Assembly (NCBI GenBank): GCA_041697335.1
Contig: JBGUGD010000028.1
Coordinates: forward strand, 1-30,701
Direction: 5' to 3'
DNA length: 30,701 nucleotides
From: Vampirovibrionaceae bacterium NZW_1234
Lineage (GTDB): Bacteria > Cyanobacteriota > Vampirovibrionia > Vampirovibrionales > JAGQHJ01
This document shows, piece by piece, positions 9,001 through 21,000 of this stretch (positions are counted from its first letter, which is position 1; every line of letters begins with the position of its first letter). Made by a program: the position numbers.

Positions 9001-12000
9001 GCTTTGTGGTCAAACGCATGCATCTGATGGGTCAAGGACCGGATGAGGGCGATTTTTTCCATCTCCCAGCGAAGGCGTGCTTTAAAGAGCTCTTCTTTCA
9101 GCCGCTTGTCCTGAAGCAGCCCCAATTCGTCCAGCATGCGGTCACGGTCGCGCTGGGTCAGGAGGTCTCGATAGGACCGTGGCACAGGTCCCCGGCCAAG
9201 CGGTATCTCCGGCTGGGCGTTGTCTTGTGAATAGGGTCCCCGAAGGGCTCCCGTCTCCCCATTTGCGGGCGATAGGGATGGCATGGGTATCAACTCCTAG
9301 AACTCTCTCATGGACGATTGTACTGAACCGGGTGATGCTGACGGCTGTCCGCAATATGCCTCTGTCACCCAACGAAAACGAAAAGGTTAGGCCATGGCCC
9401 CCCACTGAATGCCGGAAAGCGTGCTTCTGGCCGCACTGCTTTGGGCCATGCATTCATAGAAGTGCTGCAAGGTCTTGTTATAGCTGGTGGTGGCCTGCTG
9501 GTAGCCTTCCTGGAACTGGCTGGCCTCCGGCTTGTTCTGGTGTTCATACAGCGCATTCTGGAAGGCGATGCGCTTGCCAAACAGGTTGACCAGATCCCGA
9601 GACGCTTGATCGGCGCTGCCATTGAAGGATGCGACCTTGGAATACATTTCCAGAAGTTTTTGCTGCCGTTCCCATTGACTCTGGGTCATCCCGCTCGGTA
9701 GATTCGGCGAGGAAGCGGCGTCATCCGTCGTCTGTGCGCCCGGACGATCCGGTGTGCCGTTAGCCCCTCGGGCCGTTGAGGCGGTATAGGCGGGGAATAT
9801 ACCCCGTGGCGTTGCCCTGAGACTCGCCAGGTCGATTAACGAACCTGAAACCATCACTTTATCCCCTTATCGCTCTGAACCAAACTAAATGAATAAGAAC
9901 ATCTCTATATAGGTATAAAACCCATTTTTTGAGGCTTTTTGATATGTCAAAAATAAGGATATGATTAAGATTGAGCCGTTTTTAATGTTCTAAAAACAGT
10001 CATAGCTTATGTTTCTTTAGTTTTTTAAATCAATAATCTGATTTCGAGCGGGTTTTAGGTGAAATTTTAAAAGCCCGGATCCGGTCAATCGATCCGCCCA
10101 GGGAGGGGGCTACATCTGAACGCCGCGCATCATGTCTTTGAGGGTTTCCAGGGTGGTTTCCATGTTCACGATGTCTTTGACGGACTGGCGCAGGAACTTG
10201 TTGATTTCGGGCATCATCTGGAGGGCCAGGTCGATTTTCGGGTTGCTGCCCGGCTCGTAGGCGCCCACGTCAATCAGATCTTTGGCGTCTTTGTAGACGG
10301 CGAGCAACTCCCGCATTTTTCCGGCAGCTTCAATGTGTTCCCTGTCGGCAATTTCCGTAAACAAACGGCTGACGCTGCCCAGAATGTCAATGGCCGGGAA
10401 GTGGTTCTGGGCCGCAACTTTTCGGGACAGGAAGATGTGGCCGTCAATAATCCCCCGGACCGTATCGACGACGGGGTCGTTGATGTCGTCGCCTTCTACC
10501 AGAACGGTATAGAGCGCCGTAATGGAACCCTTGTTGGTGACACCGGTGCGCTCCAGTACTTTTTGCAGCCAGGAGAAAATCGAGGGCGGGTAGCCTTTCA
10601 TGGTGGGCGGCTCCCCGATGGATAGGCCCACCTCGCGACCGGACATGGCACACCGGGTCACGGTGTCCGTCATCATAAAGACCTTTTTGCCCTGATCCCG
10701 GAAGTATTCGGCAATGGCTGTGGCGCTTTGCAAAGTTTTCATCCTGAGCAAAGGCGGTTGGTCCCCGGTCGCGCAGACCAGCACCGAGCGCTTCATCCCT
10801 TCCTCGCCCAGGGCGTGCTCCATAAATTCCTTGACCTCACGGCCGCGTTCTCCGATGAGGGCCACCACGTTGATGTCGGCTTCCGAGTTACGGGCAATCA
10901 TCCCCATCATGGTCGACTTCCCTACACCGCTACCGGCAAAGAGGCCCATGCGTTGACCCGCCCCCATGGTCAGGAGCGAATCCACGGCCCGAACGCCGGT
11001 GGAAAACTTGTTGCTGATAATGGGGCGATCCAAGGGATCCGGCGGGGGGGAGTCCACGTTGACCCAGGTGGCACCCACGGGCTCGATGGGGCGGCCATCC
11101 ATGGGGTCGCCCAGGGGCGTGATGAGTCGGCCAATGAGGAAGTCGCCCACGGGAAACATAATGGGGCCGCCGGTGGTGGTGACCCAACTGCCCTGGGAAA
11201 TTCCGGCCCCGTCGTACAGCAGGAGCATCTGGGCTACATCGCCCTTGAAGGCCACGACTTCCGCCGCCTTGGGCGGGCCGTCCTTCGTTTCGATAAAGCA
11301 CAGGTCCCCGATTTTCAGCTGGGGCAGGTAGGCTTCTACCGTCAGGCCCATCAGTTTCGACACCCGGCCCTTGTATTTGCAGAAGTCTTCCTTGGCCAGA
11401 ATTTCAGAAATCCGGTCCTGGGTCGCAACCAGCTTGTCCTCCGGGATGAGGCATTGTTTTTCGGATTGGGGGTCGTGAATGGCCATAGGGGGCTTACCTC
11501 TTAGACGTATTCGTCGGCAAATTCGTTGTTACCAATGGTGCCCACGGCTTGTACCTGGATGTCCGGTATCAGTTCGCTGTAGGAAATGACCGTCACCATG
11601 GGGATGTGGCGATCCAGGAGCTGATAGAGCGGCAGGCGAATCCGGGGGGAACACAGGATGACCGGCATGCGGCCATAATTCTGCTGAATTTCCGTCAGTG
11701 TGGAGACGGTGCCTTCAATAAGTTCCTGGACCTGGAGCGGGTTCAACAGGAACATGGTGCCCAATTCGGTGCGCTGGCACGAATCATCCAGCATGCGCTC
11801 CCAATCGTTGGACAGGGTGACGGCGTACATGGTCTTGCTGGGGTCGCTATGGGCAATACAGATTTGGCGGCCCAAAGACGCCCGCAAGCGTTCGGACAGC
11901 ACATCGGGCTCCTTGCTGTAGCGGGCAAAGTCGGACAGACGCTCGAAGATGAAAAGCACGTCCTTGATGGAGACTTTTTCGCGCACCAGGTTGACGAAGA

Positions 12001-18000: not shown

Positions 18001-21000
18001 GGGGTTCATCAGAGAAGTCTCCTTTTTCGTTCACAAGTGCTTAGGCGTTTCGGCTGCTTAAATAGGCGGCCAGGATTTTTCGGACATAGTTTTGGGTTTC
18101 CTTGTAGGGCGGAATGCCGTTGTATTTGTCAACAGCACCGCCTCCGGCGTTGTAGGCGGCCAGGGCCAAGGCAATGTTGCCGTTGTATTTGGCCATCAGG
18201 CCGGATAAAAACTTCACGCCCCCGGCGATGTTTTGCTCGGGATCGAATGAGTTTTCCACACCCAGGCCTTTGGCCGTGGCTGGCATGAGTTGCATCAATC
18301 CGCGAGCCCCGCAGTGGGAAACGGCATTGGGGTTAAAGCCGGATTCCTGACGAATCACTGCCGTGACCAGTGCCGGGTCGATGCCGTATTGTTGGGCGTA
18401 TTTTTCGATTAACGGTTGAAACTGTTCCTGATTCAGACGGGTCGTTTGACTCAAGGGCTGGAGTTTGGGCGGTGGGGTTGTATTTCCGAGATAGGCCTTG
18501 AAGGAATCGGGCTGCAGTGTGGCATTATTCTCGGAACGCTGTTTTTGGCTTTCCAGGGCTTCAATCATGGATTCCAGTTTTTGAACCCGGCTTGAAATGT
18601 CGTTGATGCCTGAGCCGGCTGAAAAACGAGTAAAGGAAACACTGGTATTGAACATGGGATTGACGAACTCCTAACCTAAGTCGGATTATTGGCCACGACC
18701 GATTTCCATGGCTCGGTTGGCCATTTGTTTCACGATGCCGATGACAGAGAGATTTGCTTCGTAAATCTTGGATGCCACTGTGGCGTCTGCGATGTCGCTG
18801 ATGACGTTGACGTTGGACAGAACAATATAGCCGTCCTTGTCGGCTTGCGGGTGCGAGGGCATATAGACCCGTTTTCCCGGCGTGGGGTCGGCCACGTTTC
18901 CTTCAAAGGTGACGCCACTGTTATTGAGGCTTAAGCCGGTGTGAAACATGCCGTTTCGCATATCGGCCAGCACGCCTTGAAAGCTGACCACGCCGGATTC
19001 GGCGACAACCGGAATGCGCCGGACATAATATGGTGTGCTGGTGTTGGCCACGTTTGCCGCATGGGTCTGGATGCGTTTGGCGCTGGCGCCAATGCCCTGG
19101 GCTGCAATATCGAACGAACTGTTGAGAGACATGGGGCTTACCTCCCGATTTGTGTGGCGCGTCGCAGGTTATTGAAGACCGTTGAGGCGCGCTTGGTCAC
19201 CAAGCTGTAATTCAAGAAGACTTTTTGCATTTCGATCATTTCGGTGGCCATATCCACCCCTGTGCCGGTGGTTTGCACCATCGCCGAGTTTTCCATGCTG
19301 CCCATTTTTTGAGACAAATGGGTTTCGTAGGGATTGCTCAGCTGGCCCAGAACTTCCGTGAAGTTGTACGATTGGCGCACATAGCCGGGTGTGTTGCTGT
19401 TGGCAATGTTATTGCTCACAACTTTTTGCTGTTGCGAGAGGCCGGAGATCATCCGATCCATGCGATCAATGCTGTCGTACATCATGATGGGTTGATTTCC
19501 TCTAGTTAATTAGCGACTTATTGCCGTAGCTGGATGGCTTCCTTGTAGATGTCATCCACGGCTTTAATGACGCGAAGGTTACCAATGACGCCTGCGTTCA
19601 GGCGCAAAATGTCTTCAACGGCTGAATTCACACTGACGTTGCTGGACTCCAGATAGCCTTGCTGGATCAGGTGGTGATCTTTCACTTTTTGGGGATCGCC
19701 CGATTCGCCCGTGGCCACCAACAGGTTATTCCCAATGGCTTTGAGACCTTCCGGGTTGGTAAAGTTCACAATGTTGATGTGGCCAATCTCTTTCAGATCG
19801 CCGGCGGGAACTTCCCGCAGCTTGACCGTGCCGTCGGGATCAATAACCACTTTGTCGTAACGTGCCGGGATTTGAATGCCGGTGCCGACCATATTGCCGA
19901 AATTGTCGACAATGAAGCCCTGGGTATTTTTAGCAAAACTGCCATTTCGGGTGTAGGCAATGCTGCCGTCCGGGCGAGTTACCTGGATGTAGCCAGGACC
20001 GTTTAACGCGATATCCAGTTCGCGCCGGGTAATAAACGTTGCGCCACAGCTGTGATCGGTTCGCTTGACGATGTCCATGTTCCCATCCGGGCGGATGAAC
20101 TGATCGAATCGAATGGCTTTGTACCCCCAGGTGTTGTAATTCCCGAGGTTCTGTGACACAGACTCCAAGGCCTGGTAAGCCCGGGTACTCTGGTCGGCTG
20201 CGACGATCATCATTTGGTCTAACATAGGGCAGGTCTCCTTAATCAGCCTTATTGGGCTCGGCCGAGTTCTTGGATGAGTCGGCTGAGGGCTTGGCTGTGG
20301 GTTAGAAAAATTTGGCGGTTCGCCTGAAAGTCACGCCGGGGGATGGTAATGCCGACGAATTCTTCGTGGAGGAACACGTTGGAAGCTTCCATATGGCCTT
20401 GGCGAATTTGTACTTCATCGGCCAGCGATCCGTCTTCGGATGCAACGCCGACTTGGGCCACCCGGACCGTTTCGTAGGTTTGCGGGTTGACGATATCGAT
20501 CCAGCCATCTTGCTGGACCTTGATGCGTTCTAATTTGTCCGGAACAAAGGGAAGCTTGATTGGTTTGCCGCTGCGCGAGAGAATCGGCATATAGTCATCC
20601 GACAGAAGATTTCCATCTTTGTCCAGCCGCATGCGCCCGTCTCGGGTTAGATCGATGCGACCATCCGGCTGCAACTTCTGGAAATAGCCTTTTGTATTTA
20701 AGGCCAGATCCAGAGGCTTGCCTGTGGCGTTGATCCGGCCCACATTGGTGTCTCTGACCGCATCTATCCCTTTATGGCCCAGTTGCTCCGCAAAGGAGGT
20801 GACCACCGGGACACGCCGTTGGTAGCCGGGCGTGTCGGCATAGGAGATGTTGTCCGCATAGAAGTTCATCATGTAAATCTGTTGCGTCATCCCGCGGACC
20901 GCAATGGTCATCGGGTCTTCATCGTAGGTAATGCGTCCAACCAGTTTCATGGCAATTTCATTCCTTGTGCATCGAGGTGAATCTCTCCTGAAAATCCTTC

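Follow-up and report, generated by a model that had tools for sequence, protein, structure and literature searches.

How injectisomes arose from flagella is a classic unsolved question; to our knowledge a single intermediate between the two is known, and no rod or hook genes remain in it. Hook-basal bodies lacking filament and motor, such as those of Buchnera and similar organisms, are read as exporters and represent cases in which an organism's sole flagellum was recently reduced. The T3SS of Myxococcales lack FlgBCDEK, FliE, FliG and FlgH (Abby and Rocha 2012, PMC3459982), and are named "needleless T3SS*" in PMC12075869. Partial flagellar sets have been interpreted as a non-functional subset or as ongoing reduction (Soo 2014; Di Rienzi 2013). 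The main text of Matheus Carnevali 2019 (PMC6349859) contains no mention of flagell-, secretion or type III, and a search of the literature for an earlier description found none naming a system of the kind analyzed here.

The window, that is, the whole stretch of DNA analyzed, comprises 30,701 nucleotides from the genome of Vampirovibrionaceae bacterium NZW_1234 (G000). Positions 10110-20950 contain the core of a second T3SS gene set (set 2), formed by 11 ORFs whose place, order and common strand are those claimed in the genome-wide survey's note:

20249..20950, minus strand: FlgF-like rod protein, 233 aa (Pfam LlgE_F_G_D1 3e-9; 25% to set-1 FlgF)
19518..20225, minus strand: FlgG-like rod protein, 235 aa (LlgE_F_G_D1 3e-19, Flg_bbr_C; 30% to set-1 FlgG)
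19138..19485, minus strand: FlgB proximal rod protein, 115 aa (Flg_bb_rod 9e-9)
18686..19132, minus strand: FlgC proximal rod protein, 148 aa (Flg_bbr_C 2e-5; 30% to set-1 FlgC)
18041..18655, minus strand: lytic transglycosylase, 204 aa (Pfam SLT 6e-35; same position in genomes G001, G100 and G258)
17677..18009, minus strand: FliE rod adaptor, 110 aa (Pfam FliE 5e-17)
15709..17421, minus strand: FliF MS-ring protein, 570 aa (YscJ_FliF 3e-32, YscJ_FliF_C 2e-12)
14371..15528, minus strand: 385-aa adaptor, a FliG N+M relic in an SctK-like position (Pfam over homologues, fold search, profile search)
13634..14374, minus strand: FliH/SctL ATPase stator, 246 aa (Pfam FliH 1e-21)
11501..13612, minus strand: FlhA/SctV export gate, 703 aa, of the set-2 clade (FHIPEP 1.5e-213; clade 100/100 apart from canonical FlhA)
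10110..11486, minus strand: FliI/SctN export ATPase, 458 aa, of the set-2 clade (ATP-synt_ab 1e-83, T3SS_ATPase_C 9e-27)

The remaining genes of set 2 were located, likewise as reported, on contigs C8 (66046-69792), C29 (178730-179812) and C30 (50562-52826), and the complete flagellar set of the same genome (set 1) on C2, C23 and C25. In genome G001, set 2 is a single 14-gene operon running from FlgF to FlgE. Identity between the two sets amounts to 51% for FliI, 37% for FlhA, 27% for FliF, 26% for FliE and 21% for FlgB. The export gate (FliP/Q/R, FlhB, FlhA), the ATPase and the M ring are all present for set 2 in NZW_1234, and the flagellar rod and hook proteins FlgB, C, F, G and E are all kept together with FliE, the hook protein measuring only 280 aa and lacking the large outer insert. 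The lytic transglycosylase probably makes the opening in the peptidoglycan through which the rod passes. Recent horizontal gain of set 2 was ruled out by GC content (0.50-0.62, against 0.52 for the contig) and by class-wide presence.

From gene content and sequence comparison, we consider it probable that set 2 encodes a non-rotary, flagellum-related protein exporter without a flagellin filament, ending in a short hook-like conduit. It can be observed in families f7, f8 and f9 that set-2 FlhA occurs in 135/135, 8/8 and 11/11 genomes, respectively, with open frames that are 63-89% identical among the 150 matches listed, three carrying one internal stop. FliG_C, MotB_plug and flagellin (E<=1e-25) were each detected in 0/42, 0/8 and 0/11 genomes of these families, and the P-ring protein FlgI in 0/17, 0/8 and 0/10 (35 in total). 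The FlgE/F/G domain was present in 10/10, 7/7 and 9/9 genomes, with three matches in 10/10 f7 genomes and six in 11/11 genomes of the order of NZW_1234. FlgI is single in flagellated Vampirovibrionia genomes; in NZW_1234 itself FlgI and FliG_C were each found once, in agreement with the survey's statement that FliG and the L/P-ring genes are single. Its description of set-2 FlhA as the sole FlhA of f7 stands as regards the presence of that copy throughout the family; a second FHIPEP match also occurs in f7 genomes, which was a FlhA C-domain-only paralogue in the three inspected of 135. Nor is f7 flagellin-less as a whole family: a canonical-scoring FlhA is carried by 14/101 f7 genomes, confirmed by locus and tree in G258, while the absence of flagellin holds for the 42 sampled. 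Gene content backs the view that members without a flagellum have retained no T3SS other than set 2. A VirB4 domain was not found in NZW_1234 (94.75% complete).

The 385-aa protein, previously called unrecognisable, is identified by profiles as a FliG relic. It consists of a helical N-domain (residues 1-165) that appears novel, a Pro/Glu linker and the FliG N+M relic (232-385), and ends after the FliG M domain, the C-terminal torque domain being missing. Pfam matches over 125 homologues comprised MgtE_N (41), FliG_M (24), FliG_N (19) and other families (<=4), and the best matches of the family profile outside the family were canonical FliG. In the fold search, FliG chains occupied ranks 2-6 and 8 of 50 (Z 4.9-5.6), each match being weak (Foldseek E 4.6-9.3, Z <6, hhalign probability 1.4). 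Searched as a full-length model, the protein had no convincing fold counterpart: the top Foldseek match reached E 0.56, and VIA reached at most Z 8.5, against helical proteins that are unrelated. No fold could be assigned to the N-domain, and solved structures searched by sequence with a 9-row profile returned nothing relevant. The FliF-X-FliH gene order of set 2 is that of SctJ-K-L; SctK is described as structurally FliG-like in 10.1101/2025.03.14.643159, and the 385-aa protein fits SctK in position and, through these weak matches, in fold. The relic may have been caught between FliG and SctK. The C8 gene formerly called FliN-like encodes instead an SctQ-like protein of 418-472 aa with two SPOA stretches; in a feature search, the outside clusters nearest to this set-2 C-ring protein were of SctQ/YscQ/HrcQ type (0.90-0.91).

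A matching second set was found in the sister class of Vampirovibrionia, probably Sericytochromatia, and in Margulisbacteria, which implies that set 2 is older than the class Vampirovibrionia. The survey's reading of set 2 as ancestral to the class is therefore borne out, with its age understated. The pattern seen in f7-f9 recurs in Margulisbacteria and in the sister-class family f18. Among Margulisbacteria, FlhA was found in 68/71 genomes, flagellin in 14/71 (E 1e-3), canonical FliG in 13/71 and any FliG_C match, including divergent ones, in 38/71. In the sister class, families f12, f14, f26 and f35 have second, divergent FliG_C matches, and f18 has none (0/4). The second sets of these sister lineages also keep FliM-like proteins, FlgD and L/P rings. 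Since a divergent FliG_C is retained there, the non-rotary reading would apply to the Vampirovibrionia form.

It is proposed that the export gate (FliP/Q/R, FlhB, FlhA) would be housed within the FliF ring, which the 385-aa relic would join to the SctQ-like C-ring protein. The latter would carry the FliH-FliI-FliJ ATPase, as in the SctK-SctQ-SctL-SctN arrangement of injectisomes. FliE, FlgB, FlgC, FlgF and FlgG would then be exported to form a rod through the hole cut by the transglycosylase, followed by the 280-aa hook protein. Subsequently, the FliK-like ruler and FlhB would change the exported substrates from structural to other proteins. This assembly order, the switching and the secretion of cargo are predicted from sequence. 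Candidate cargo consists of about 100 proteins of NZW_1234 that have the N-terminal motif [PLVI]RFG but no signal peptide. No enrichment of the motif was found in 181 sampled f7 proteins, nor in sister-class, Margulisbacteria or other loci (small samples, mostly flagellar neighbourhoods); "[NS]F[GK]", which we take to be an alternative version, was not enriched in f7 either.

Set 2 might alternatively be a second flagellum, for example of a particular life stage, borrowing the stators, rings and filament of set 1. MotB_plug is matched twice in NZW_1234, as in most genomes of its order, three flagellins are present, and the rod, the hook, FliK and a sigma-28-like neighbour belong to set 2 or its gene neighbourhoods. 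Such a flagellum is nevertheless very unlikely, as set 2 is kept in 61/61 f7-f9 genomes without detectable flagellin, FliG_C or MotB, its FliG lacks the torque domain, and f6 has both FlhA types but a single MotB match in 23/23. A decaying, functionless remnant, in line with how Soo 2014 and Di Rienzi 2013 read partial gene sets and with the scattering of the set-2 genes of NZW_1234 over four contigs, is hardly credible: the frames are intact, paralogues such as FlhA C-domain fusions have arisen from set 2, in three lineages the set persists next to a complete flagellum, and it outlasts flagellum loss. A machine that is real and non-rotary but serves as a static structure of the envelope (for periplasmic export, as an adhesion stub or as a membrane-tube scaffold), without delivery to other cells, is unlikely, though less easily dismissed. 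Abby and Rocha argue likewise for the Myxococcales systems (PMC3459982). For the Vampirovibrionia form no dedicated outer-membrane part, L/P ring included, was found; neither of the two secretins of NZW_1234 is linked to set 2, these being encoded on other contigs or at a large distance, and the ORFs scanned in set-2 loci included no needle SctF, inner rod SctI, ring SctD or translocon. Against this stand the leader-motif proteins and the P-ring of the sister lineages (FlgI in 67/71 Margulisbacteria; a P-ring gene in 16/19 second-set loci), the latter implying passage to the outer membrane.

With injectisome sequences added, set 2 falls on the injectisome side in the trees of FlhA, of FliP/Q/R/FlhB and in one of two FliI trees, its export proteins lying outside all canonical flagellar homologues sampled; the Myxococcales T3SS is its nearest branch there in two trees. 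As regards the evolutionary reading only, we give somewhat less than an even chance to long-branch attraction, in which case set 2 would have arisen by an early duplication of a Terrabacteria-type flagellum, evolved fast and come to resemble injectisomes by convergence. The AU test on FlhA rejected neither set 2 with flagella of its own phylum (p 0.058) nor SctV with proteobacterial flagella (p 0.166), V1+V2 was not rejected by FliI alone (p 0.079), and the F1-rooted FliI tree, a quick search, placed SctN elsewhere (87). Depending on the tree, set 2 comes out as a clade or as a grade, few SctV families being sampled in trees without a secured root. However, the split uniting set 2 with injectisomes is stable under LG+C20 (100/99 and 100). 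It also holds once the longest branch of set 2 is taken out (99.5, with p 0.013 and 0.009 for the alternatives), and for FliP/Q/R/FlhB the AU test rejected both alternatives (p 3e-4 and 1e-3; under C20 3e-8 and 5e-5). Duplication from the class's own flagellum was rejected as well (p 4e-5 and 2e-8). Together with gene content and the truncated FliG, this rejection upholds the survey's distinct, non-rotary T3SS lineage, "no motor" denoting gene absence; its "third kind" of T3SS may rather be an early branch of the injectisome line.

We advance, only tentatively, set 2 as a surviving branch of the flagellum-to-injectisome lineage, earlier than the Myxococcales stage and already present in the ancestor of Cyanobacteriota and Margulisbacteria, with predatory Vampirovibrionales perhaps exporting about a hundred proteins by the [PLVI]RFG signal. 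The three forms would make a plausible series. In the sister class and Margulisbacteria, rod, hook and L/P rings would be kept with FliG decaying; in Vampirovibrionia, rings and torque domain would be gone, with SctK-like and SctQ-like parts; rod and hook would then be lost (Myxococcales) and a secretin finally gained. Set 2 would offer a conserved machine, widespread among non-photosynthetic cyanobacterial relatives, with rod and hook genes kept but the motor lost, and open to imaging and testing in an organism grown in co-culture. The "partial flagella" of gut Melainabacteria would then be a machine in their own right, on which the 13-gene "flagellar" tree in Di Rienzi 2013 was largely based, and the algal predator lineage would have a possible export route besides the earlier-proposed plasmid type IV system.

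In comparison with known systems, set 2 has a flagellar-like gene order and homologues of these parts of the flagellar hook-basal body: export gate, MS ring, rod, hook, ruler, ATPase and FliO. It differs in lacking flagellin, junction, stator and FliG torque domain, and in the Vampirovibrionia form the L/P ring, in its short hook, and in forming a deep clade of its own, found side by side with a true flagellum. With injectisomes it has in common the tree side of its export proteins, the SctK-like relic between ring and stator, the SctQ-like two-SPOA protein, a transglycosylase in the operon and the lack of a motor; unlike them, it retains FliE, a complete FliF, four rod proteins and the hook, and has no linked secretin, nor SctD, needle or translocon among the ORFs scanned in its loci. 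Buchnera-type basal bodies are recent reductions, whereas set 2 is a paralogue of ancient origin, retained next to a flagellum that is still intact. The Myxococcales T3SS are likewise secretin-less, motor-less, vertically kept and were first dismissed as relics (Abby and Rocha 2012, PMC3459982); the rod, hook, FliE and FliG relic retained by set 2 place it closer to the flagellar state than those systems.

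The second T3SS lineage proposed in the genome-wide survey's note is real and conserved. All eleven of its genes (set 2) claimed for the window are present as open reading frames, as described there. The flagellum genes (set 1) are complete on C2, C23 and C25, and the remainder of set 2 was found, as claimed, on C8, C29 and C30. Identity between the sets is 21-51%. In G001, which belongs to family f4, FliJ, FliK and FlgE stand with the genes of the window in a single operon of 14 genes, which ties the scattered pieces together. In G004 and G017, too, FliF, the adaptor, FliH and FlhA belong to set 2. 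The set-2 genes elsewhere and the observations beside them are as follows.

C8: two-SPOA protein, FliO, FliP, FliQ, FliR
C8:66865-67404 (L005:6866-7405): this FliQ, extended at its C-terminus to 179 aa (relatives: 136-293 aa; normal length: ~89 aa)
C29: FlhB, then a sigma-28-like gene
C29:179872-180600 (L006:7873-8601): the sigma-28-like gene behind flhB; in the sister class and in Margulisbacteria, genes of similar kind lie inside the second-set operons
C30: FliJ, FliK-like, 280-aa FlgE-like
window 8784-9293 and 9387-9857 (-): a pair of small orphan ORFs directly downstream of fliI; their N-termini are of low complexity, their C-termini look helical, and neither has a significant Pfam match
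window 24288-26174 and 26380-27996 (+): a pair of chemoreceptors, of which one carries GAF domains and the other is globin-coupled

Within Vampirovibrionia, set-2 FlhA was matched in 221/301 genomes: f1 3/3, f2 17/17, f3 20/20, f4 2/2, f6 22/23, f11 1/1, f7 135/135, f8 8/8 and f9 11/11, being rare or absent in f5 (1/78) and f10 (0/2). In the genome's own order, at least two FlhA matches occur in 40 of 41 genomes. FlhA was found in only 1/78 genomes of f5, 0/2 of f10 and 0/104 of other families, including photosynthetic ones; both sets are lost in f5, f10 and the photosynthetic families. A draw of 171 genomes was searched for FliG_C, MotB_plug and flagellin (the last at E<=1e-25): each turned up in at least 66 of the 67 genomes of f1-f4, f6 and f11, and in no genome of f7 (0/42), f8 (0/8) or f9 (0/11). 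FlgI was absent from the same three families (0/17, 0/8, 0/10) in a search over 91 genomes. The FlgE/F/G domain was retained in f7 (10/10), f8 (7/7) and f9 (9/9) among 61 genomes searched; each f7 genome had three matches, and each of the 11 own-order genomes had six. In f7-f9, set 2 thus retains rod and hook without motor, filament or P ring; the genomes counted here are related and not independent. The description of f7 as flagellin-less stands for the 42 drawn genomes but not family-wide, as flagellated members lie outside the draw; canonical-scoring FlhA occurs in 14/101 f7 genomes, confirmed for G258. Family f7 appears to be the gut Gastranaerophilales, and f5 the Obscuribacterales.

The age given in the note, ancestral to the class, proved too young, since second sets also occur in the sister class, apparently Sericytochromatia, and in Margulisbacteria. 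In the sister class, FlhA is present in 40/42 genomes; the second type was seen in 19/20 fetched loci, and in 16 of those 19 FlgI lies within an operon that runs FlgF-G-A-H-I-J, sigma, FlgB-C, FliE, FliF, FlhA. Two copies each of FliI and FliP occur in the tested genomes of f14, f24 and f26, and one copy each in G311 (f18); FliG_C was found in 0/4 f18 genomes. Among 71 Margulisbacteria genomes passing a 70% completeness filter, FlhA was found in 68, flagellin in 14, canonical FliG in 13 and FlgI in 67. Second-type loci made up 15 of the 20 fetched, and several of them carry a FlgE of 267-292 aa, an SPOA protein, FliN-FlhA and a sigma factor. In the Margulisbacteria genomes G447-G517, long divergent proteins give as many as 7 FliG_C matches in one genome, also where flagellin is missing. 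A natural fusion of the FliF C-terminal part with a full but divergent FliG lies at L255:7644-9719 (G301), and similar frames of 615-758 aa occur in f12 and f26. In this one fusion sequence, the charged residues of the torque helix are altered.

FlhA trees place canonical flagella, among them the set-1 sequences from each of the three lineages, on one side and set 2 with SctV, the injectisome counterpart, on the other, with support of 99 (74 rows, FastTree), 100/99 (52 rows, LG+C20, 22 rows left out) and 99 (54 rows). In a 33-row tree, set 2 holds together as a single group (91), and a grouping of this class's set 2 with its set 1 was rejected (p 4e-5). In FlhA AU tests, neither set 2 with own-phylum flagella (p 0.058) nor SctV with proteobacterial flagella (p 0.166) was rejected. 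FliP+Q+R+FlhB, independent of FlhA, gives the same split (100), and set 2 here branches ladder-like towards the injectisomes. Here, both alternatives were rejected under LG+G4 with 30 rows (AU p 1e-3 and 3e-4), set-2 monophyly standing at p 0.05, and under C20 (p 5e-5 and 3e-8) with the free tree as guide tree, a choice in its own favour. With the long Vampirovibrionia branch removed, the split still reached 99.5 (alternatives p 0.009, 0.013); with injectisomes removed, set 2 is a clade (99.9). FliI gives a mixed picture: SctN fell elsewhere (87) with F1 outgroups (44 rows), and set 2 joined SctN (92.6) once ten rows were taken out, six of them outgroups and four either long or ambiguous, and two SctN sequences were added. 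The T3SS trees have no secured root, hold 3-11 injectisome sequences and miss Spirochaetes and Thermotogae. The chances that set 2 is an early branch of the injectisome line are roughly balanced.

The 385-aa protein (14371..15528, (-), between FliF and FliH), described earlier as unrecognisable, carries a FliG N+M signal through Pfam over its homologues, fold and profile. A profile from 9 orthologues retrieved 490 representatives at E<=0.001. Over 125 C-domain or full-length homologues, Pfam matched MgtE_N in 41, FliG_M in 24 and FliG_N in 19 (best E 3e-6), and other families, FliG_C included, at most 4 times each. When the C-domain model (pLDDT 89.5) was compared with solved structures, FliG chains took ranks 2-6 and rank 8 among 50 matches (Z 4.9-5.6); the alignment ran through residues 1-188 of Salmonella FliG, and 60 residues superposed at 2.4 A on the middle domain of H. 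pylori FliG. In Foldseek, 6/15 rows contain FliG, all insignificant; the best outside matches of the C-domain profile in fetched loci are canonical FliG (E 5e-4 and 0.02). These individually weak lines agree, and together they say that the predicted C-domain corresponds to the N and M domains of FliG and that the torque domain is missing. In 8/150 representatives and in G156, the N-domain forms a fusion with the set-2 FlhA C-domain, which hints that it may contact FlhA.

L079:7633-9411; P0029, P0131, P0141, P0142, P0144-P0147: N-domain/FlhA C-domain fusions, some with two membrane helices
L073:7921-9399, L074:7342-8865, L075:6907-8352: membrane-less set-2 FlhA C-domain paralogues of 481-507 aa in f4 and f7, with a conserved small N-terminal domain and a coiled coil

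Among 2653 ORFs of the genome called in this analysis, PRF and RFG are the most enriched N-terminal tripeptides. RFG occurs 128 times in residues 4-45 versus 109 in 61-250 (5-fold, p 9e-34), and [PLVI]RFG lies early in 104 ORFs (15-fold), 4% of which have a hydrophobic leader versus 22% of the remaining ORFs. The leaders (~100 ORFs) are Ser/Pro/Thr-rich, as at C2:171746-173149, C8:53727-55454 and C10:57157-59262, and are a candidate export signal; the proteins, which seldom have a signal peptide, may be cargo of set 2. The motif showed no enrichment among 309 ORFs from an f5 genome without set 2, nor among 181 f7 ORFs. No VirB4 was found in the genome.

Set 2 is probably a non-rotary exporter. 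Most likely, it would be static, comprising gate and ring with an SctK-like/SctQ-like platform and ATPase; a rod and then a short hook would follow, and a ruler would control the switch from structural parts to cargo. The two secretins in the genome are both unlinked to set 2.

As far as their accessible text goes, Di Rienzi 2013 (PMC3787301), Soo 2014 (PMC4040986), Soo 2015 (PMC4451040) and Utami 2018 (PMC5877343) treat these genes as one flagellum, complete or reduced; accessible parts of Abby and Rocha 2012 (PMC3459982) served for comparison on T3SS. The shared genes G0015-G0028 of Di Rienzi, in the portion available, appear to match the 14-gene set-2 order position by position, and the duplicates may stand in the supplementary gene tables of these papers and in Figs. 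S7 and S6 of Soo. No published account of a separate T3SS of this kind was found in a search whose coverage leaves out most subscription journals.

Set 2 is a T3SS that belongs neither to the flagellum nor to the injectisome. The larger insert that the set-1 hook has is missing from its short hook. The second sets of the sister class and Margulisbacteria look more flagellar-like: they have L/P rings and FlgD, together with FliM-like proteins and FliG_C domains that are divergent. The C8 protein contains two SPOA stretches, and SctQ types form the outside clusters nearest to it, a lead only. According to the accessible part of a preprint (10.1101/2025.03.14.643159), the FliG and SctK families are structurally alike and the injectisome gene order is SctJ-K-L, with which FliF, the 385-aa protein and FliH of set 2 agree.
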